Source of the DNA: Patescibacteria group bacterium
GTDB lineage: Bacteria > Patescibacteriota > Minisyncoccia > Phycocordibacterales > BOKC01
NCBI GenBank assembly: GCA_038062955.1
Contig: JBBTWE010000001.1
Location: 182,304 to 246,303 of the forward strand
Reading direction: 5' to 3'
DNA: 64,000 nt
The translations under genes and the position numbers were made by a program. Below the pieces are notes generated by a model. The model had not been told where the DNA came from. It saw only the letters and a list, made by a program, of their open reading frames with translations, and ran no database searches. This document shows, piece after piece, positions 3,982 to 55,852 of this stretch. Numbering within the stretch: position 1 is the stretch's first letter; each line of letters opens with the position of its first letter.

Positions 3982-3998
3982 TCTTATATTTTTTTATT

Positions 3999-4019
3999 CC
4001 CTGCCTGCCGGCAGGCAGG
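3999..4019. repeat. perfect GC palindrome cctgcctgccggcaggcagg (a family; other copies at 35143-35162, and degenerate at 7980-8000, 11003-11021, 44331-44351)
   Basis: identical 20-bp palindrome twice, each followed by ttgRatct; the copies at 35143 and 44331 sit 16-40 bp upstream of tRNA-Ala 5' ends. Confidence 0.7.
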
Positions 4020-4032
4020 TTGGATCTTGAAT

Positions 4033-5877: not shown

Positions 5878-6498
5878 TTATCTACTATAAAATTCTAGCA
5901 CCACGTCCAGATCATAAAGCACATTATTCATTTTTTCTAAAGTCGGCACACTCAAAAAAGCACCTTCTTTTTTCTCACTATTAAATTTTATCCAATGTGG
6001 CAGAGTTATGCCTTTAAGTCTTTCGTCTAGAGTTTTGAAAAGTCCTTTCTTTTGGCTTCCAATTCTTATACCAATCTTTTCTCCGATTTTCACACTATAT
6101 GAAGGGATGGTCATCTTTCGGCCATCTATTGTGATGTGTCCATGGGACACGAATTGTCTAGCGGCGGAACGAGTTCCCGCAAAACCAAGTCTAAAGATCG
6201 CGCTATCGAGACGGCTTTCAAGGAGGCTAAATAGAAAATCAGATTTGTTTTTGTTTTGAGATTCTAACGCTTTTTTTACATAATTTGAAAATTGCTTTTC
6301 GCTCAAAAGATAAGTGTATCTTGCTTTCTGCTTCTCTTTCATTTGAATACCATAGTCTGTGACTTGAGACATATGTTTCTTTGTCGAACGAGCGTTGGCT
6401 TTTCTGGCAAGGGATAGGGTATATTTTTGAGTTTGGGTTTTCTCAAAAACTGGAGCTCCTAATCTTCTTGCTATTTTGTATTTTGGACCTATCTTCAT
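5878..6498 (-). CDS. rpsD: 30S ribosomal protein S4
   Basis: MKIGPKYKIARRLGAPVFEKTQ... with S4 domain. Confidence 0.95.
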   Translation of the reverse strand: MKIGPKYKIARRLGAPVFEKTQTQKYTLSLARKANARSTKKHMSQVTDYGIQMKEKQKARYTYLLSEKQFSNYVKKALESQNKNKSDFLFSLLESRLDSAIFRLGFAGTRSAARQFVSHGHITIDGRKMTIPSYSVKIGEKIGIRIGSQKKGLFKTLDERLKGITLPHWIKFNSEKKEGAFLSVPTLEKMNNVLYDLDVVLEFYSR

Positions 6499-6598
6499 AG
6501 ATTTAAGATTTACGATTTAAGATGTATGATTTCAATTAATTTGATGATACAGGAAGTGATTTAAAATCTTAAATCTTACATCCTATATCTGAAATTGT

Positions 6599-7030
6599 TT
6601 AAACTCTTCTTGGTTTGGGAGCCTTTGGACCATTGTGCGGAATTGGTGTTTTATCTTTTATGAAACTCAAATTTATACCACGCGCAACAAATCCTCTTAT
6701 AGCAGACTCACGTCCTGAACCGACACCCTTTACGATTACTCCGACCTCTTTGATTCCCATTCCTTGAGCTTTTAAGGCCAAAGTTTCTCCAATTTTTGCT
6801 GCCGCAAACGGTGTACCTTTCTTGGCTCCTTTAAAACCTAATGCCCCGCTTGAAGATGCACAAAGAAGATTGCCTTTTCCGTCAGTTAAGGCCAATTTGG
6901 TGTTGTTGTATGTAGATTGAACATGAAGAATTCCGTAATCAACGTTTTTCTTTGAAACGCTAATTTCCTTGGTTGCTACACCGTTTTTTTCTTCAGTATC
7001 TGATTTTTTTACTATTCTTTTTTTACCCAT
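6599..7030 (-). CDS. rpsK: 30S ribosomal protein S11
   Basis: ...LALTDGKGNLLCASSSGALGFKGAKKGTPFAA... Confidence 0.95.
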   Translation of the reverse strand: MGKKRIVKKSDTEEKNGVATKEISVSKKNVDYGILHVQSTYNNTKLALTDGKGNLLCASSSGALGFKGAKKGTPFAAAKIGETLALKAQGMGIKEVGVIVKGVGSGRESAIRGFVARGINLSFIKDKTPIPHNGPKAPKPRRV

Positions 7031-7105
7031 AAAATAAATTTAAGATTTCTGATTTCAGATATGAGATTTAAAATCATAAATCATATATCTGAAATCTTAG
7101 ATTAC
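7031..7105. repeat. AT-rich imperfect palindrome of the TAAGATTTATGATTT / AAATCATATATCTGAAATCTTAGATTA family (other copies 6499-6598, 7487-7505, 7623-7692, 10955-10993, 53365-53420, 54440-54478)
   Basis: repeated motif in most intergenic spacers of the ribosomal-protein cluster and a few other spacers; forms long AU hairpins in the polycistronic transcript. Confidence 0.65.
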
Positions 7106-7486
7106 TTACTTCTTATCTACTGCTCTTTTTCCGCTACCCATGGTCTTTCTGACGTTTCCTCTTCTGGTTCTGGAATTGGTTTTTGTCCTCTGCCCTCTTA
7201 CTGGTAAACTTTTCATGTGTCGAAGTCCTCTGTAAGCCTTTATGTCTTTGAGTCTCTTTATGTTACCGGCCACCTCTCTTTTTAAGTCCCCTTCCAATTT
7301 GTAAATCTCAATAGATTTTCTTATTTTATTTTCTTCTTCTCCAGTCAGTTCTTTAGATTTTTTTCCGAAGTCCACTCCAGCTTCTTTTAAAACCTTTTGG
7401 GCGCGAGCGCGGCCAATACCATAAACAGCCGTCAAGCCGATTTCAAGTCTTTTTTCATCTGGGATGTTGATGCCTAGTATTCTCAT
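7106..7486 (-). CDS. rpsM: 30S ribosomal protein S13
   Basis: MRILGINIPDEKRLEIGLTAVYGIGRARAQKVL... Confidence 0.95.
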   Translation of the reverse strand: MRILGINIPDEKRLEIGLTAVYGIGRARAQKVLKEAGVDFGKKSKELTGEEENKIRKSIEIYKLEGDLKREVAGNIKRLKDIKAYRGLRHMKSLPVRGQRTKTNSRTRRGNVRKTMGSGKRAVDKK

Positions 7487-7505: not shown

Positions 7506-7622
7506 TTATCCTTGTCTTTGTTTGTGTCTGGGATTACTTTTGCAAATCACATGAACACGCCCACGACGCCTTACCGTTTGGCATTTAGGACATATTTTTT
7601 TTACTGCGGCTCTGACCTTCAT
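7506..7622 (-). CDS. rpmJ: 50S ribosomal protein L36
   Basis: manual translation gives [38 protein letters not shown] (38 aa); it is below the 60-aa ORF-track cutoff; it lies between infA and rpsM as expected. Confidence 0.9.
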
Positions 7623-7692
7623 ATGATTTAAGATTTATGATTTACGATATAAGATTTAAATCTCAAATCATATATCTAAAATCTTAGATTAT

Positions 7693-7911
7693 TTAAACTC
7701 TTTTAATTATTCTTCCTTTACCACCATAAGGCTCAAGCTCAACGATAACCTTGTCTCCAACCAACACCTTTATTCGGTAAAGCCTCATTTTACCTGATAA
7801 ATAGGCCAGCAATTCTTCTTTCTGGTTATCAATTTTGAGTTTAAATAAAGTATTAGGCAAAGCCTCAACTACAATGCCGTTAACGCTTTCTTTTGCCTTT
7901 TGGGTGGTCAT
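7693..7911 (-). CDS. infA: translation initiation factor IF-1
   Basis: ...AKESVNGIVVEALPNTLFKLKIDNQKEELLAYLSGKMRLYRIKVLVGDKVIVELEPYGGKGRIIKRV; the start is probably the internal ATG at 7911, not the ORF-track start at 7947. Confidence 0.9.
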   Translation of the reverse strand: MTTQKAKESVNGIVVEALPNTLFKLKIDNQKEELLAYLSGKMRLYRIKVLVGDKVIVELEPYGGKGRIIKRV

Positions 7912-10943: not shown

Positions 10944-11055
10944 TACCTAAATTATATCAGATTCTTTAAGATTTAAGATGTATCATTTAAGATTTATGAT
11001 TTCTGCCTTACGGCAGACAGGTAAAATTAATAAAAAAGCCCCACGACTAGTGAAA

Positions 11056-11354: not shown

Positions 11355-13133
11355 CTATTCCAACACTGCTTTGATCCTCCTTACTCCAGCAGAAACGGCT
11401 TCTTCTTTGAGGATTTTGAATTTTCCATTCAAATCACCGGTATTTTTAACATGAGGACCTCCACAGAATTCTTTGGAGTATGCAGTTTCCAGATTTTTGC
11501 CAGAGAAATAAACATCAACTTCATTGCCGTATTCTTCACCAAAAAAATGTAGAGCTCCAACTTTTTCCGCTTCAGCCTTTGGTAGAGTTATTTTATTCAT
11601 TGGCAGTTTTTCTTCAATTTTTTCATTCACAATCTCTTCAACTAGTTTTTTCTCTTCAGGCGTCATTTTCTTTGGATGTTCAAAGTCAAAACGCAGTCTT
11701 TCTGGGGTGATATTTGATCCTCTCTGTCTGACACTTGATCCTAAAACGTCTCGCAAAGCTTGGTGAAGAAGATGGGTGGCCGTATGGTACTTTACTGACA
11801 TCTCACTTGTATCTCCAAGTCCACCTTTAAATTTTTTCTCCGCTCCCGTACGAGAAAGTTCCTGATGCTTCTTAAAAAGTTCCTCAACTTCTTGCTTTTC
11901 TATTTTAATTCCCTTTTCAAGAGCTAACTCAATAGTTAGTTCGATTGGGAATCCGTATGATTGGTATAAATTAAAGATTTCTTCAGGTTTAAAATCAGTT
12001 ATTTTCTCAAATTCTTTCATGCCCTTAGAAAGAGTATTTCGAAATTTTTGCTCTTCTTTTTCAATTTCCTGTTTTATAGTCTCTTTTTTATTAAAGAGAT
12101 TTGGATATACATCTTTATATTTTTCTATAACTATTTCTGCGATTAAAAGAATCGATCCAGGTTTTATACCTAGTTTTTCAGCATGATTAATAGCTCGGCG
12201 CAAAAGTCTTCGCAAAATATATCCTCTGTCTGTGTTAGACGGTGTTACTCCCTCAGCAATCATGAATACAGAAGTTCGAATGTGGTCAGCAACTACGCGT
12301 TTGCTTTTTGTAAGCGGCTTATTACTTAATGAGTCAATTTTTTCAAAAATCCCGTCAAATAGATCAGTATCAAAGATATTAGTTTTTCCTTGAAGCACCG
12401 CGCATACCCGTTCAAATCCGGATCCGGTGTCAACGTTTTTATTTTCAAGCTTGCCGACAACTTTGTCGTCTTTTTTGATATATTCCATGAAGACGTTGTT
12501 CCAGATTTCAACCACTTTCTGCTCGTCATCAGCCTTGAGATATTCGTCTTTGGTCATTCCTTTGTCTAACTTTCCGGTGAGATCATAGAACATTTCAGTA
12601 TCAGGACCACATGGGCCATTCGGCCCCGGTTGCCACCAATTATTCTTTGCTGGCATGAAATAAATTCGTTCGCCCGTTACATTATTTTTTTTGAAAATTT
12701 CTCGCCAAATTTCTGCGGATTCTTCATCTCGGGGTGCATCATCATTTCCTTCAAAACAAGTTACATAAAGTCTTTGTGGATCGAGTCCAAATCCTTCAGA
12801 TTTTGAAGTTAAAAGCTCATAGCTCCAGGCAATTGATTCTTTTTTAAAATAATCTCCCAAAGACCAATTCCCCATCATTTCAAAAAAAGTGAGGTGAGTA
12901 TTGTCCCCAATCTCGTCTATATCGCCAGTTCTTACGCATTTCTGAATGTTTGCCAATCTTTTCCCAGCTGGGTGAGGAGTGCCTAAAAGATATGGAACAA
13001 GTGGTTGCATTCCGGCAGTATTAAAAAGCACCGACGGGTCATTTTCGGGTATCAAAGAAGCAGACGGAATAATCGCATGTCCGCGTTTTTCAAAAAATTT
13101 TAAGAATCTCTTTCTGATTTCTTGGCTATTCAT
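11355..13133 (-). CDS. alaS: alanine--tRNA ligase, short form (592 aa; catalytic, tRNA-binding and editing domains, no C-terminal extension)
   Basis: MNSQEIRKRFLKFFEKRGH...FNTAGMQP... plus editing-domain HTATHLLHQALRDVLG... Confidence 0.9.
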   Translation of the reverse strand: MNSQEIRKRFLKFFEKRGHAIIPSASLIPENDPSVLFNTAGMQPLVPYLLGTPHPAGKRLANIQKCVRTGDIDEIGDNTHLTFFEMMGNWSLGDYFKKESIAWSYELLTSKSEGFGLDPQRLYVTCFEGNDDAPRDEESAEIWREIFKKNNVTGERIYFMPAKNNWWQPGPNGPCGPDTEMFYDLTGKLDKGMTKDEYLKADDEQKVVEIWNNVFMEYIKKDDKVVGKLENKNVDTGSGFERVCAVLQGKTNIFDTDLFDGIFEKIDSLSNKPLTKSKRVVADHIRTSVFMIAEGVTPSNTDRGYILRRLLRRAINHAEKLGIKPGSILLIAEIVIEKYKDVYPNLFNKKETIKQEIEKEEQKFRNTLSKGMKEFEKITDFKPEEIFNLYQSYGFPIELTIELALEKGIKIEKQEVEELFKKHQELSRTGAEKKFKGGLGDTSEMSVKYHTATHLLHQALRDVLGSSVRQRGSNITPERLRFDFEHPKKMTPEEKKLVEEIVNEKIEEKLPMNKITLPKAEAEKVGALHFFGEEYGNEVDVYFSGKNLETAYSKEFCGGPHVKNTGDLNGKFKILKEEAVSAGVRRIKAVLE

Positions 13134-13155
13134 ACTGAATACTATATACCATATA

Positions 13156-13767
13156 CTAACTTTGCTTCAAAACTTTAAAATCTTCTTTCAAAGTGTCTTT
13201 GGTGTGAGAATTATAGATGGCAACGGCAGGGTGATAGAGAGGAATAATTTTCATTTTTCCGAAACTTGCGTCGGTTTCGAAAATTTTCCCGTGAATTTTG
13301 GAAATTGGTTCGATGTCAAAATCTAGGCCGAATTTTCGCATAATATAATCCATTGAAAAACGCCCGAGAGTCGCAATGATTTTTGGCTTAATTATTTCAA
13401 TCTGCCTGTCCAAAAAAGGGCCGTAAACTTCTATTTCTTCCGGAAGCGGATCTCGATTCCCCGTCGGCCGATCTTTTACAATATTTGTTATATAAATATC
13501 TTTTCGATCTAATTTCACACTCTCTAAAAGTTCATCCAAAACTCTACCGGACGCTCCACAAAAAGGCTTGCCGGTTAACGCTTCGTTTTTTCCTGGAGCT
13601 TCGCCGATGAATACAATTTCGGCAAAATGACTTCCCTCTCCAATCACCGGGAAAACTTTATTAGCGATTCTTTCTTTGTATAAAGGAGAATTTTTGAGAG
13701 CAACAACCTCGTCCTTGATCTGCCTCATGAGTTCCTTCCTTTTTTCTGTTTCTACTACATCTAACAT
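13156..13767 (-). CDS. udg: uracil-DNA glycosylase, family 4
   Basis: GEAPGKNEALTGKPFCGASGRVLDELL motif. Confidence 0.85.
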   Translation of the reverse strand: MLDVVETEKRKELMRQIKDEVVALKNSPLYKERIANKVFPVIGEGSHFAEIVFIGEAPGKNEALTGKPFCGASGRVLDELLESVKLDRKDIYITNIVKDRPTGNRDPLPEEIEVYGPFLDRQIEIIKPKIIATLGRFSMDYIMRKFGLDFDIEPISKIHGKIFETDASFGKMKIIPLYHPAVAIYNSHTKDTLKEDFKVLKQS

Positions 13768-13796
13768 TCAATAATAATAACCCCACAATCTATATA

Positions 13797-13845
13797 AAAA
13801 AAGCGCCTCGCGATTCGTTGTTCACGAATTTCGCAAGGCGCCGTT
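13797..13845 (-). terminator. intrinsic terminator of island C, homologous to 43016-43064
   Basis: ggcgccttgcgaaattcgtgaacaacgaatcgcgaggcgc plus T7 on the minus strand; about 80% identical to the terminator of island L gene 3. Confidence 0.65.
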
Positions 13846-13870
13846 GGGCGAGCTGTAGATTTGTTACTAC

Positions 13871-14380
13871 CTACTGCGGTTTGGTGGGAGGCGGAAGGGC
13901 GTGATAAACCGTGAACTGTCGAGGGATTGCTTTGACTTTTGCTTTTTGCCCCTCTATCTCACTCACGAGTTTCCAATTGGCATCGGTCATCTCTGCGTTG
14001 AATACGCTAGCAAGTACATCCTGTTCCTTTTTGATGGCTTCCATCTCATGGGACCAGGAGGAAAGCTGGTTGATCGCCCACTGTGTTTGTGGATTATCAC
14101 CGAAGGAATCCCGCATCGATTTCAGGAAACTCTCGTAGATGAGGATGTCTCTCTGCTTCTTGTAGATTTCTGCAGCGGTATCCTCGAACCACTGGCACCT
14201 CTCGATCATCGCGCGAGGACCAAGTTTCGATGATGTCTCAAACGTAAGTTGGCTAAAGACTATGCATGCAGCCGAGAGACCAAAGATTGCACCTGCCAAC
14301 ATGGCCACAGGTAGTCTCTGTGGCCATTTACCTCTACGATCATCAAGGATCTTTTCCCCATTCAGTTTCGTGGATTCCAT
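13871..14380 (-). CDS. hypothetical membrane-anchored protein (GC-rich island C ORFan)
   Basis: 169 aa with N-terminal TM (LPVAMLAGAIFGLSAACIVF); ribosome-binding site GGAGGAGAAATTGAG-ATG; a palindromic promoter upstream; its terminator is homologous to the one at 43016-43064. Confidence 0.5.
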   Translation of the reverse strand: MESTKLNGEKILDDRRGKWPQRLPVAMLAGAIFGLSAACIVFSQLTFETSSKLGPRAMIERCQWFEDTAAEIYKKQRDILIYESFLKSMRDSFGDNPQTQWAINQLSSWSHEMEAIKKEQDVLASVFNAEMTDANWKLVSEIEGQKAKVKAIPRQFTVYHALPPPTKPQ

Positions 14381-14444
14381 CTCAATTTCTCCTCCAAAAG
14401 AACTGGAACTCTGTAGCGGAGTGCCACAAAGTGTTTATCTGCTT

Positions 14445-14476
14445 TGAATATAAAATACTTGACTATACGAGTCAAG
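14445..14476 (-). promoter_or_regulatory. promoter of island C with a perfect 7-5-7 palindrome CTTGACTcgtatAGTCAAG overlapping the -35 (operator-like)
   Basis: minus strand TTGACT-N17-TATATT; the palindrome is seen directly. Confidence 0.5.
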
Positions 14477-14559
14477 AGTAGAAAAAATTAAATAAAAAAC
14501 ACCCCGATATTCATCCGTTTGTTGCAGATTTTATCAAGGTGGTTATTTGTGTTTTCAAA

Positions 14560-14718
14560 TCAGAGTAACACAACGACTACATACCATACTCCACAAAGAA
14601 AAGAACCAGAGATGACGGCACCCACCAGAAAGATTGCGATGGTGAGTAGTGTGTCTAACCCGGTACGAATGGGTTTCAATTGCGGAACCCATGAAGATGC
14701 GTCTTGTTTTGGAGTCAT
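14560..14718 (-). CDS. small hypothetical membrane protein (island D; start may instead be 14763)
   Basis: 52-67 aa GC-rich ORF with TM segment LLTIAIFLVGAVISGSFLCGVWYVVVVLL; lies upstream of island C on the same strand. Confidence 0.3.
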   Translation of the reverse strand: MTPKQDASSWVPQLKPIRTGLDTLLTIAIFLVGAVISGSFLCGVWYVVVVLL

Positions 14719-14778
14719 ACTTTCCCTTTTGTTGTGAGGAACTTGCCGTGTAAACCATAACAAAAAATCAACTTGCCG

Positions 14779-15027
14779 TCAATATAATTTTTCAGCTTCC
14801 AGAATTTCTTTCTTTTTCTCTGTCCCCCGATTATATCCACCAGTTTTTCCATCACTGCGAATTACCCTATGACACGGAATATCTGAATTAAAGTTTTTAT
14901 TTAAGATATTGCCGACAGCTCGAAACGCTTTAGGACTCTTGGCTTTCGTCGCCACTTCTTTATACGTCAAAACTTTTCCTTTCGGAATTTTGGAAACTAC
15001 ACTTAACACTTTTTCTTTAAACAACAT
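14779..15027 (-). CDS. methylated-DNA--protein-cysteine methyltransferase DNA-binding domain protein (MGMT/Ogt C-terminal domain only)
   Basis: active-site motif IPCHRVIRSDGKTGGY. Confidence 0.8.
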   Translation of the reverse strand: MLFKEKVLSVVSKIPKGKVLTYKEVATKAKSPKAFRAVGNILNKNFNSDIPCHRVIRSDGKTGGYNRGTEKKKEILEAEKLY

Positions 15028-15032
15028 AATTT

Positions 15033-15839
15033 CTAACCAAATAGAGTTGGAATCTCTTCTTCTGGACTATTATTTTTTATTTTAGCGATTTTTTTAGTTT
15101 TTGGTGCGGACGTTTTGGTTGAATTTTCTGGTAATTTATCTTTATAAAGTTCTTTGATTACTAAATTCGCGTTTTTTCTGTAAGAGCAATGTTCGCAGTC
15201 GTTGTTTGCATCCGGCAAAGTGTCTTGTTTTAGACATTCTGAAATCTCTAAAAGCACTCCAGGAATCCACGAACTGTCCCCTTCATAAGTAATAACATCA
15301 ACATCAAATTCTAATTTTCCATCAAAGGCTTTTTCGTCCTTTCGGCCATTCACATAAACAAAGTAGCCGGTATTTGAAACATTGTGGCCATTTTGTTTGA
15401 AAAGCCACTGATAAATTTCCATCTGCCTTTTGTAAGCCTGTTGCCAATGTCCGTCGAGATTTGGTTTTTCATTTTTGGAAGTGGCCTTGTAATCTACAAT
15501 GTGAAGTTCTCCATTATCATTCTTCCAAATATCGTCAATTGCGCCGTATACCAAAAAACCCGTTGCTTCATGTTTGTGTTGAATGCCGGTAAAGTTATGT
15601 CGCCATTTTTCTAATTCGGCATGGGCAAATGGAATTGCATTTATCCCATATTTCTTCATGAGAGGGTGAGCTTCTTTGTTCGCCCTATGAATATCAAATT
15701 CTTTTTTTAAGAGATGGTCGACGGCGCTGTTTAAGGTAAAAGCTGGCATCGAGGGACGCTTAACTTGCAATTTTTGATCCAAATAAAAACAGCGTTTACA
15801 TTGGATAAATAAGTCTATTTTAGATCTGCTAAGTTTCAT
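15033..15839 (-). CDS. PD-(D/E)xK nuclease with Cys cluster (Cas4/RecB-exonuclease-like)
   Basis: N-terminal CKRC; IVDYKATS (D...E/D-x-K core); C-terminal CEHC; start codon is part of the MITE target-site duplication. Confidence 0.55.
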   Translation of the reverse strand: MKLSRSKIDLFIQCKRCFYLDQKLQVKRPSMPAFTLNSAVDHLLKKEFDIHRANKEAHPLMKKYGINAIPFAHAELEKWRHNFTGIQHKHEATGFLVYGAIDDIWKNDNGELHIVDYKATSKNEKPNLDGHWQQAYKRQMEIYQWLFKQNGHNVSNTGYFVYVNGRKDEKAFDGKLEFDVDVITYEGDSSWIPGVLLEISECLKQDTLPDANNDCEHCSYRKNANLVIKELYKDKLPENSTKTSAPKTKKIAKIKNNSPEEEIPTLFG

Positions 15840-19621: not shown

Positions 19622-19788
19622 GATTTCTATTTTAACGTAAAAATAAAATAGGCGCTAGGTATCCCTCCGGGATCATAAAAACATCAGTGAAATAATCTCT
19701 ATTACTTGACAAGACACTCCAATTCTGTAATTGTATATGAGGATAAACCTGCACTTCGTAGGAATCTGTTCTTTAACAAGGGTTCATT

Positions 19789-20256
19789 ATGCTACTCGCA
19801 ACCGATAGAAAGGCAAAGGTACGTCTGAGAAGGCTCGCAAGGCTCGACTTCACCCAAATCAAGGCCAAACTTTGTTCCGAGATGCCTGGGTGGAATGCGG
19901 AGAAGGCAGAACTCATCGAGAAGTGGTATCGCCGCTTCTTGCAGGTCATTCTCTTCCACCCGCAAGCAAAGATCGTTCCCAACACACTGGTGGATGACTT
20001 CTGGCACGCTCACATCCTCGACACCAAGAAGTACATGCTGGACTGCCAGAACGTCTTCGGGCACTTCGTCCACCACGAACCGTCCTACGGCGAAGAGAAG
20101 TTGGAGGGAGGCTACGATGAGACCAACGCCCTCTTCCGTGAGACGTTTGGTGAAGATCAGACAGTTCTCGAACCTAGTCGGGCTGGTAAAAAGTGCAGGA
20201 AGAAGTGCAGAAGGAAGTGTGGAAGCATAGACGGAAACTGTGCTAGCGGGTACTGA
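19789..20256 (+). CDS. hypothetical protein with DDFWHAHILDT...Y..DC...GHFVHHEP motif and a Cys/Lys-rich C-terminal tail (possibly GRDP/DUF1399-like)
   Basis: GC-rich 155-aa ORF (island E); a plus-strand hairpin plus T8 terminator lies at 20268-20302; the antisense ORF 19792-20274 was rejected. Confidence 0.55.
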   Translation: MLLATDRKAKVRLRRLARLDFTQIKAKLCSEMPGWNAEKAELIEKWYRRFLQVILFHPQAKIVPNTLVDDFWHAHILDTKKYMLDCQNVFGHFVHHEPSYGEEKLEGGYDETNALFRETFGEDQTVLEPSRAGKKCRKKCRRKCGSIDGNCASGY

Positions 20257-20313
20257 AGCGGGACAATTCCCCAAACCATAACAAGTTTGGGGGATTATTT
20301 TTTTTAAATTTTT

Positions 20314-20523: not shown

Positions 20524-20614
20524 ATAAATAGTCTGTAATGTAGAATAGAAAGGTTAAATGGTATTAAACCCTTTGATCGTCTACACGCTCGCTAACCGGA
20601 ATAAAGCAAAACCC

Positions 20615-20658
20615 CCGAACCGAAAGGAACGGGGGTTTTGCTTTTTATTTTGACTTTA
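20615..20658. terminator. bidirectional intrinsic terminator
   Basis: A-run, aaaacccccgaaccgaaaggaacgggggtttt, T-run. Confidence 0.75.
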
Positions 20659-20678
20659 TAACTTTTAACCTTATAACT

Positions 20679-35127: not shown

Positions 35128-35142
35128 TTTAAATTTATGATT

Positions 35143-35162
35143 CCTGCCTGCCGGCAGGCAGG
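35143..35162. repeat. perfect GC palindrome cctgcctgccggcaggcagg, second copy
   Basis: identical to 3999-4019. Confidence 0.7.
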
Positions 35163-35179
35163 TTGAATCTAATTCCTAA

Positions 35180-40917: not shown

Positions 40918-40956
40918 CTTTTGACTTTAGGGTCAAAAAGACAATCTTACAATTAT

Positions 40957-41012
40957 ATCATAAAGATAAAAACCCTTGTTTTTAGGCCTAGTTATGGAAT
41001 TAGGAGGATTTT
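40957..41012. repeat. about 55-bp direct repeat (second copy 41538-41596, about 85% identical), each followed by a TTGACA promoter
   Basis: acaattatatcataaagataaaaa(c/g)c(c/t)ttgtttttag... aligned by eye. Confidence 0.65.
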
Positions 41013-41026
41013 ATAGAAAATTCGCT

Positions 41027-41055
41027 TGACAATAAACTAGATGTGTGTATAATAT
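41027..41055 (+). promoter_or_regulatory. near-consensus sigma70-type promoter TTGACA-N16-TATAAT with TGn
   Basis: cgcTTGACAataaactagatgtgTGtgTATAATatac. Confidence 0.6.
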
Positions 41056-41064
41056 ACAAGGATA

Positions 41065-41478
41065 CGTTCGGCGCCAAATCCTTAAATGGCGAACACATGT
41101 CACTACGGGGTACAGCGATATGTGAGGCCAGCGTAGTATGTTTTCTCTCCCCATCCGACATACCACAAACGGTAACGGAAGAAGAAAGAGAAATAAGTTC
41201 CAGGCCGTGTCTCCATCCTGGAACGAAGCAAAAAAGAGACAACAAAAAAGACAAATTCTGCTATGATCCCGGGAAAGTTCCCGTGCGATCGAAGGTTCTA
41301 GACGGTGAGAATCTGTTCGCGATCCCGGGTTAAATCCTGGGCGAACATAAGGCCAAGATGCCACAACCGAGCACCCTGAGGATTGGTCTCCTCGCGTCCC
41401 ATAGGCCGCGTACTGGGTGATGATACTTTGACCACGGGCCGGAGCAACGATTCAGTCGTTTGCTTCGGCCCTTTTTTA
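41065..41478 (+). ncRNA. promoter/terminator-bounded GC-rich transcription unit (about 410 nt): structured ncRNA candidate, or a 79-aa Cys-containing small protein without a ribosome-binding site
   Basis: near-consensus TTGACA-N16(TGtG)-TATAAT at 41027-41055; multiple perfect hairpins (gttccagg...cctggaac, gttcgc...gcgaac); terminator gggccgg...cggccc plus T6 at 41436-41478; no RNase P / tmRNA / SRP signatures. Confidence 0.4.
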
Positions 41479-41665
41479 TTGCAAATTTTTAGGTATTTGT
41501 AGATGTGTGATGCGAATAAAAAGCAAAAAAGCGAATATAACAATTATATCATAAAGATAAAAAGCTTTGTTTTTAGACGTTTTTGTGGAATTATGCTAAT
41601 TTTACTTGACATTTTCCTGTATTATGATATTATCTAAATAGAACATCCAACCCACAGGAGGACTT

Positions 41666-42990: not shown

Positions 42991-43015
42991 GTATTATATC
43001 AAAATTTTGTATAAA

Positions 43016-43064
43016 AAAAGCGCCTCGCGTTTAAATCGTTTTCACGAATTTCCGCAAGGCACTT
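43016..43064 (-). terminator. intrinsic terminator of island L, homologous to 13797-13845
   Basis: gtgccttgcggaaattcgtgaaaacgatttaaacgcgaggcgc plus T7 on the minus strand. Confidence 0.65.
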
Positions 43065-43083
43065 TGACGTACGACTACCGCAC

Positions 43084-54432: not shown

Positions 54433-54512
54433 TATACCAAAGATAAATCATAAATCTTATATCTAAAATCTGAAATTATTGACGTGGTTGACTACACCAA
54501 AGTAATATATTA

Positions 54513-55549: not shown

Positions 55550-55852
55550 TTATCTATATTCCAGTTTTTTGCAAAATACTAGAATATCTTGAGCAAGAGG
55601 AGTAAGTTTGTGTCGAACATTAACACCGTCACTTCTTTTTAAAATGAGATCCGCAATAAATAATTTTCGAATGTGGTCAGAAGTATTTGTATAACCGCAT
55701 TTAATTCTCTCTGAAATTTCGTCTACTGAAAGTTCTGGTTCTTCCTTAAGTAATTCTAGTATTTGAATCCTTCTTTTATTAGCAAATCCTTTTATGATTA
55801 TCTCTAATCTTTTGTATGATCTCGCATGAGTTTCTTTTTGTGCGACTTTCAT
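55550..55852 (-). CDS. ArsR/SmtB-family transcriptional regulator
   Basis: ANKRRIQILELL...LSVDEISERI...HIRKL winged-HTH motifs. Confidence 0.75.
   Translation of the reverse strand: MKVAQKETHARSYKRLEIIIKGFANKRRIQILELLKEEPELSVDEISERIKCGYTNTSDHIRKLFIADLILKRSDGVNVRHKLTPLAQDILVFCKKLEYR

Follow-up and report, generated by a model that had tools for sequence, protein, structure and literature searches.

Two questions are raised by a GC-rich islet of approximately 1.0 kb that interrupts a housekeeping operon in the genome of a member of the Patescibacteria (candidate phyla radiation, CPR) assembled from Hainich groundwater: where the islet came from, and how the 169-amino-acid (aa) membrane protein encoded in it is controlled. 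The islet spans positions 14778 to 13768, between an MGMT-like gene and the gene for a family-4 uracil-DNA glycosylase (UDG), in the 64-kb stretch of contig JBBTWE010000001.1 that was analysed here and that is called, in its whole length, the window. A preliminary description of this DNA had taken the 169-aa protein for an ORFan and had proposed that a perfect palindrome in its promoter is a ready-made site for a dimeric repressor. The reading favoured here, with a probability of roughly 0.6, is that the islet was acquired horizontally and comprises two moron-like units, D and C, with standard expression signals, and that unit C, which carries the 169-aa gene, is controlled by a hairpin in its leader and not by a repressor.

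The GC content of the window averages 38%, and the islet is one of approximately 12 short stretches in which it reaches 47-53%. The host operon around the islet is otherwise compact and holds genes for a PD-(D/E)XK nuclease, the MGMT-like protein, UDG and alanyl-tRNA synthetase (AlaRS). Among the taxon-named homologs of UDG, the closest were those of Ca. Yanofskybacteria and Paceibacterota. In locus L076, whose UDG is 75% identical, the stop codon of the MGMT-like gene and the start codon of UDG are 7 bp apart and the slot is empty, and in L075 the nuclease gene abuts UDG with 6 bp between them. Because these genes lie so close together where the islet is missing, the islet is recognized as an insertion into a compact operon. 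Homologs of the 169-aa protein with 51% and 36% identity were found in the same slot between the MGMT-like and UDG genes in a second species (loci L007-L014) and a third species (loci L015-L017), respectively; in L015 the gap is only 120 bp and lacks the small open reading frame (ORF) of unit D. Since the gene occupies one slot in all three species, the insertion is, on the evidence of gene order, older than their split. A different gene, encoding a 92-aa helix-turn-helix (HTH) protein and followed by a simple terminator of its own, fills the slot in L074, and by a like reading of gene order the slot is one that received inserts more than once. Six Hainich contigs hold the islet region and all are 100% identical, so that no population variation was seen in the islet.

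By its composition and rate of change, the 169-aa gene looks acquired, and purifying selection on it appears weaker than on the neighbouring genes. Its GC content is 0.49, and its GC content at third codon positions is 0.55 compared to 0.30-0.37 in the neighbouring genes. In the comparison with L007, the nonsynonymous (dN) and synonymous (dS) rates were 0.38 and 1.3, respectively, for the 169-aa gene (dN/dS approximately 0.29), and 0.06 and 0.67, respectively, for UDG. Identity between the islet and L007 is mostly 30-60%. At the ends of the islet, TTATATTGA was found at 14779-14787, at the end of the MGMT-like gene, and TTATTATTGA at 13768-13777, just before the ATG of UDG; the insertion may have created them as a short direct repeat, but they are AT-rich and could be a product of chance. 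Farther upstream, in the PD-(D/E)XK nuclease gene, the 60-nt windows 15820-15761 and 15750-15691 are 100% identical to L007 and the windows around 15691-15830 are 95-98% identical, compared to an average of 76% over the two loci; this near-identity suggests recent recombination between the two lineages. A second clear presence/absence islet occurs at 19751-20300, where a GC-rich stretch with a 155-aa UCP032817-like gene on the opposite strand lies between sigma-70-like and DUF8128 genes; it is absent in L007, where the gap is approximately 150 bp.

The islet is made up of two monocistronic units and not one, D followed by C in the 5' to 3' direction, each with its own predicted promoter and its own predicted terminator. 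Every gene, promoter and terminator of the islet is on the minus strand (Table 1).

Table 1. Features of the islet, its borders and the related terminator of island L
Feature	Position	Strand	Details
MGMT-like DNA-binding domain gene (host)	14779..15027	-	Upstream edge of the insertion; empty site in L076
Unit D promoter (predicted), TTGACG-N17-TATGGT	14754..14782	-	9/12 consensus; TG before the -10 (extended)
Small hydrophobic ORF, 52 aa	14560..14718	-	ATG 14718 to stop 14560; C-terminal ~36 residues hydrophobic
Unit D terminator (predicted), two-tier hairpin and U-run	14491..14549	-	-16.8 kcal/mol, z = -5.5; 40.7 bits, E = 1.3e-8 with model R1
Perfect palindrome CTTGACTcgtatAGTCAAG, CTTGACT-cgtat-AGTCAAG (7+5+7)	14458..14476	.	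One arm includes the -35 hexamer of unit C
Unit C promoter (predicted), TTGACT-N17-TATATT	14447..14475	-	-35 at 14475-14470, -10 at 14452-14447; 10/12 consensus
Leader stem-loop H1, 9-10 bp stem, loop ACUCC	14408..14432	-	In minimum-free-energy and centroid folds of all three species
H1 in the window			5' arm CUUUGUGGC, loop acucc, 3' arm GCUACAGAG
H1 in L007			5' arm CUUUGUAGC, loop acuuc, 3' arm GCUACAAAG
H1 in L015			5' arm CUCUGCGAC, loop acuuc, 3' arm GUUGCAGGG
Shine-Dalgarno sequence GGAGGAG	14389..14395	-	8 nt before ATG; AAGGAGG in L007, AAGGAG in L015
Gene for the 169-aa bitopic membrane protein (unit C)	13871..14380	-	N-terminal transmembrane helix and helical bundle; from ORF, hydropathy and homologs
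Unit C terminator (predicted), two-tier hairpin and U7	13795..13848	-	-31 kcal/mol, z = -5.2; 66.6 bits
UDG gene, family-4 uracil-DNA glycosylase (host)	13156..13767	-	Downstream edge of the insertion
Homologous terminator (predicted) behind the 144-aa orphan gene of island L, next to tRNA-Ala	43012..43069	-	69.9 bits

The predicted promoter of unit C is the best-scoring site in 13000-15500. Its -35 hexamer is identical in all three orthologous loci, and its -10 hexamer is identical in L007 and shifted in L015, where manual reading of the alignment gave TTGACT-N18-TATAAA. Hexamers of the sigma-70 type, a spacing within 16-18 nt and conservation in orthologs were thus found together. One arm of the perfect palindrome does include the -35 hexamer, as had been described earlier; what did not hold is the interpretation of the palindrome as a repressor site. 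If it were a true operator, a dimeric HTH repressor would bind TTGACT-N5-AGTCAA and block the -35 region. A perfect dyad over a core promoter is what such a site calls for, and both 6-bp arms are kept in L007 despite changes in 2 of the 5 spacer bases. This retention carries little weight because the surrounding block is 88% identical throughout, and the palindrome is no more conserved than that block. Moreover, comparable dyads are common: the window contains 119 perfect inverted repeats (arms of at least 7, spacer of at most 10) compared to approximately 60 in shuffled sequence, and they occur within 100 nt upstream of about one quarter of the genes (11 of 49 host genes and 5 of 14 island genes; 16 of 63 in total). 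The number of TTGACT-N5-AGTCAA matches with up to 2 mismatches is 5 in the window, against 4.2 expected. With up to 3 mismatches allowed, CTTGACTcgtatAGTCAAG is unique in the window, and the search for further copies, proposed in the preliminary description, gave none in any fetched locus outside the orthologous position, so that neither rarity of the dyad nor a regulon was found. In L015 a deletion of 4-5 nt removes the second arm, and the -35 hexamer, a -10 hexamer and the gene nonetheless survive; half-site conservation could be followed across three species only. An ArsR-like HTH gene is present in the window at 55550-55852, but neither the islet nor its flanks contain a regulator gene. 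The islet promoter at L026 1340-1985, TTGACT-17-TATATT in an independent cassette, holds a 7-bp inverted repeat of its own (TATAGCA...TGCTATA), a parallel that would speak for an operator. On balance an operator at this site is unlikely, and the palindrome is probably incidental, being most simply the -35 hexamer together with an inverted copy in the spacer that arose by chance or is specific to the lineage.

The leader of unit C offers a better candidate for a control element. It is approximately 60 nt long, ends in the Shine-Dalgarno sequence and contains a stem-loop, H1, whose nine core pairs hold in all three species, with 96.7% of cells paired. Two pairs are changed on both sides (three by the count of the tool used), U-A to C-G and G-C to A-U, and all one-sided changes yield G.U pairs on the sense strand. 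In controls in which the 3' partners were slid by 1-3 columns, only 27-47% of cells were paired. Because the one-sided changes give sense-strand G.U, an RNA structure is favoured over a DNA dyad. Within the islet, identity to L007 peaks at 93% in the 60-nt window 14460-14401, and 84 of 95 aligned bases (88%) match between the -35 region and the ATG; differences at synonymous sites, for comparison, amount to 44% in UDG and 62% in the 169-aa gene. The only non-coding DNA kept in L015 consists of TTGACT, a -10 hexamer and the leader stem-loop. H1 is therefore regarded, from its pattern of conservation, as the best candidate for a functional cis-element in the non-coding DNA. Three other features of the leader were considered and rejected: a 15-codon upstream ORF starting with TTG (L007 reads TTG-TAG at that position), an attenuator function of H1 (no U-run follows the stem in L015) and a second helix that would sequester the Shine-Dalgarno sequence (not conserved in L015).

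Behind each unit stands a long two-tier hairpin, with tiers of 11 and 5 bp. The preliminary description had noted that the hairpin of unit C resembles one 29 kb away in island L, and this link was upheld as homology: the two copies (13848-13795 and 43069-43012) share a 15-mer for which 0.14 occurrences are expected by chance, and both score well with a covariance model, R1, built from four copies. A search for other copies, as had been suggested, also extended the family: the terminator of unit D (14549-14491) is a third copy in the window and further copies occur in three other genomes, scoring 75-76 bits in L007 and L015 and 35 bits in L026. In an alignment of six copies, which was fitted to the model and so favours pairing, 97.9% of pair cells were paired and 6 pairs were compensatory, a value reached by 0 of 500 shuffles. 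The folds reach -31, -32 and -16.8 kcal/mol (z approximately -5) with U6-U7 after each, and the G.U pairs fit only the coding strand. Stem-loop, U-tract and compensatory changes, all expected of an intrinsic terminator, are present, which points to termination as the function of these hairpins. Counts of copies refer to the 64-kb window, approximately 8.7 kb beyond it and the fetched loci, and not to the whole genome. Each of the three copies in the window is situated at the 3' edge of a GC-rich islet. The 144-aa protein of island L has no homolog outside its own population. Shared terminators behind these genes point to a common source or to one terminator module copied among acquired genes of the lineage.

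Locus L026 belongs to a different Hainich genome. Immediately 3' of tRNA-Pro it has a GC-rich islet in which a frameshifted, truncated canonical member of the 169-aa gene family is followed by the family terminator. A pattern search of a genome collection that did not include the source genome gave one match, inside a coding sequence of an Acidobacteria metagenome-assembled genome and with no U-run, which was taken as chance; a looser pattern gave two matches in viral contigs, both noise by the covariance model. A second type of repeated hairpin, distinct from this family and built on CCTGCCTGCCGGCAGGCAGG, occurs at 3991-4027 and 35134-35170 and, in weaker form, at 10993-11029, behind host genes and next to tRNA-Ala.

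A hairpin shared by unrelated islets would be explained if it were a recognition or recombination element, attC-like or REP/IS200-like, that moves promoter-ORF-hairpin units with the help of an enzyme encoded elsewhere. The position of every window copy at an islet edge, with none in the 8.7 kb beyond, agrees with such a role, as do the presence of copies in four genomes, one directly behind the truncated family gene next to tRNA-Pro, the use of the MGMT/UDG slot by different inserts, and an inner tier (GAAAUUCG...CGAAU) whose sequence is conserved beyond the needs of termination. However, each copy has a coding-strand U-run and sense-strand G.U pairs, as in a plain terminator, and other islets in the window end in unrelated terminators. 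No recombinase was seen near any copy. No integrase was seen by the islet units either, in the course of work that included no search aimed at intI, and the units are scattered singly, with promoters of their own, and do not form a promoterless array. Inspection of the terminator alignment for the attC core (RYYYAAC ... GTTRRRY) showed no GTTRRRY 3' of any copy and GCCCAAC 5' of one copy only, and the patterns used found no copies in viral contigs or the genome collection. A mobility element of this kind is very unlikely. The broader proposal that the hairpin marks an undescribed spread of promoter-ORF-hairpin cassettes into intergenic and tRNA-flanking sites of streamlined Patescibacteria, with a recombination enzyme acting in trans and many GC-rich islets as its products, is judged highly improbable.

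The membrane-anchored 169-aa ORF of the preliminary description was confirmed, with a Shine-Dalgarno sequence and one transmembrane (TM) helix, but it is not an ORFan. In NCBI it is listed as 'hypothetical protein AAB534_01030', from a contig of 703,865 bp. Hydropathy peaks at residues 22-47, which gives the single TM helix, and the AlphaFold (AF2) model (pLDDT 87) is all-helical, with the TM helix and a helical bundle. Because positively charged residues precede the TM helix, the bundle is probably outside the cell. A word-indexed search returned one homolog, with 51% identity, and an exhaustive HMMER search returned 63 cluster representatives at E<1e-3, which have in common the motif YEWFKDxAAQL...KASYNxLAAEYNA...LPRE (in short YEWFKD...YN.LAAEYNA) and an N-terminal TM helix. 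In IMG/VR viral contigs, 43 loci with a family gene were found, some on contigs of 200-370 kb. The family, which is uncharacterised and frequent in viral contigs, is by its distribution one of mobile elements or phages. Neither the protein nor its family had a credible match in Pfam, PHROGs, NCBIfam or PADLOC; folds in PDB and BFVD and a PDB profile search gave generic helical matches only (E>0.001), a tblastn search of GenBank phages with a canonical family member gave no match, and neither the CPR-type protein nor the promoter block turned up in scans of viral contigs.

Among the viral loci examined by script, a gene that passes a lipobox filter lies directly 3' of the family gene in 18 of 38; one of these looks like an artefact of the filter and approximately 17 encode a lipoprotein that is conserved and about 180 aa long. 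Five metagenome loci have this gene order too, and the window copy has no lipoprotein partner. The lipoprotein carries the motif SGVKK...DGLTVEQ.NI...HQHY.SGGQI.H.S.QP (for example L019 2190-2744, L028 6433-6966 and L033 6471-7034). Searches of Pfam, PHROGs, NCBIfam and PADLOC with it gave nothing credible, the sole hit being GldI at 17.8 bits with a cut-off of 157.6. Neighbours of the family gene in viral loci are primase/helicase, Sak4-like, integrase and repressor-like genes and not lysis genes. A role of the 169-aa protein in the envelope, such as blocking a second phage infection, would be a guess.

The small TM-protein ORF that had been reported upstream of the 169-aa gene is present, and it forms unit D, separate from unit C in promoter and terminator. 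In its predicted promoter, the -35 hexamer and the stop codon of the MGMT-like gene overlap. The sequence ACGGCAAGTT, 10 nt long, is directly repeated on the minus strand, at the -35 region (14769-14778) and just after the -10 (14740-14749); this region is not alignable in L007. A 57-aa TM ORF occupies the matching position in L007, and no sequence similarity to the 52-aa ORF was detected. Unit D might instead be a type I toxin-like module in which an antisense RNA, started from a divergent -35 within the palindrome, overlaps the 3' end of the small ORF. The ORF is indeed hydrophobic, a plus-strand promoter-like sequence (TTGACT-18-AAAAAT, 14459-14488) is directed into it, and the second palindrome arm is found only in the two species that have the small ORF. 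This co-occurrence comes from three species, however, the two carriers being closest relatives, and the plus-strand -10 is poor (9/12 overall), which makes for a weak antisense promoter. The peptide is not conserved between the window and L007, and Rfam gave no family match in 13700-14850 at E up to 1. Such a module is extremely improbable.

The favoured reading can be set out as follows. Foreign DNA of approximately 1 kb would have entered the housekeeping operon of a Patescibacterium related to Ca. Yanofskybacteria. Each unit would bring one membrane-protein ORF, preceded by a sigma-70 promoter close to consensus and a ribosome-binding site and followed by an intrinsic terminator; the product would be the 52-aa hydrophobic peptide for unit D and the 169-aa membrane protein for unit C. 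A strong promoter of the constitutive type would transcribe each unit, and an efficient terminator would end the transcript. Expression of unit C most likely depends on this constitutive promoter and on H1, which would act post-transcriptionally, either on translation or on the stability of the mRNA; repression at the -35 palindrome probably plays no part. The terminator of unit C may also insulate UDG, which would therefore need a start signal of its own, and a weak promoter-like site was found after the hairpin. The family context suggests an envelope function carried in by a mobile element.

Several points weigh against this reading. The promoters, the start site and the termination are predictions from sequence. 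With three species only, the statistics of H1 are weak, 41 of 500 shuffles reaching the observed score, and H1 could possibly act as a dyad at the DNA level, for instance as an operator at +9 to +33. The palindrome arms are kept in L007, and in L015 loss of the second arm coincides with absence of the small ORF, so that a lineage-specific function of the palindrome is possible. The 52-aa ORF has no detectable sequence homolog, is unannotated and is absent from the protein collection. Family genes are 0.03-0.09 above the GC of their locus; because this is so even in phages, the protein itself accounts for part of the GC excess. The terminator counts are not genome-wide, as stated above, and neither a donor nor an insertion mechanism was identified.

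The locus is a clean, datable case of a streamlined, ultra-small CPR genome taking up and keeping single foreign genes, with an empty site, a filled site in three species and an alternative insert in a fourth available together. Current views are not overturned; the main practical gain is that the leader hairpin and the terminator family, and not the palindrome, come to the fore. The novelty of the islet is modest. Its possible interest lies in the repeated terminator module, which tags acquired genes and offers a handle for further work together with the covarying leader stem-loop, and in the membrane protein and lipoprotein pair, likewise such a handle, which is uncharacterised and widespread in uncultured phages, including those on contigs of 200-370 kb.

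Other elements were seen elsewhere in the window. At 41027-41486, on the plus strand, a consensus promoter (TTGACA-17-TATAAT) is followed by approximately 430 nt of GC-rich sequence with no convincing ORF and by a strong terminator. Direct repeats of 79 nt (40935-41013 and 41526-41604), 81% identical to each other, flank this segment, and a T-arm-like element, CCCGGGTTAAATCCTGGG, lies within it. The fold of the segment has z = -3.2, Rfam gave no match with E up to 10, and ARAGORN did not call it as tmRNA. Either a non-coding RNA gene not yet described or a cassette in decay could account for it. On the minus strand at 20603-20669, directly after the stop codon of the sigma-70-like gene, Rfam gave a match to ohsC_RNA of 55 bits (gathering score 50), which in a CPR genome is most likely a terminator look-alike rather than a small RNA of the E. 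coli type. Short repeats of the AGATTTA/GATTTAA type occur in intergenic DNA around ribosomal-protein genes (6494-6541, 7031-7077, 7619-7665 and 10966-11010), with inverse copies at 6561-6608, 7068-7115, 7655-7702 and 54442-54489, and a similar stretch lies upstream of UDG in L007.

Compared to known systems, the wider protein family resembles two-component spanins and superinfection-exclusion pairs in that it is a type-II membrane protein with a helical ectodomain and that a lipoprotein gene directly follows in roughly half of the viral loci examined. Unlike o-spanins, the lipoprotein is approximately 180 aa long and well conserved, and the family differs from spanins in having replication and integration genes, not lysis genes, as neighbours and no PHROG spanin match. 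The features that define spanins and integron cassettes were not found in the islet. Its hairpins are like attC sites and REP/BIME repeats in being repeated, imperfect and covarying hairpins 3' of orphan-type genes, whereas they form no arrays, belong to units with their own promoters and number only 3 copies in 64 kb. With intrinsic terminators they have in common a GC-rich stem and U-run just after the stop codon and coding-strand G.U pairs; they differ in being long and two-tiered and in being homologous to each other behind unrelated genes.

The islet as a whole is closest in kind to phage morons, the independent units of the Hendrix type, and to singly transferred genes. Like morons, its units hold a single ORF with its own promoter and terminator, were inserted between genes that are adjacent in relatives, deviate in base composition and, in the case of unit C, belong to a gene family common in viral contigs. 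In aquifer Patescibacteria, gene transfer is reported to account for as much as 13% of genome length (PMC12455944). In contrast to morons, the islet lies in a cellular housekeeping operon and not in a prophage, with no phage genes nearby, and it has been stable enough to be common to three species.

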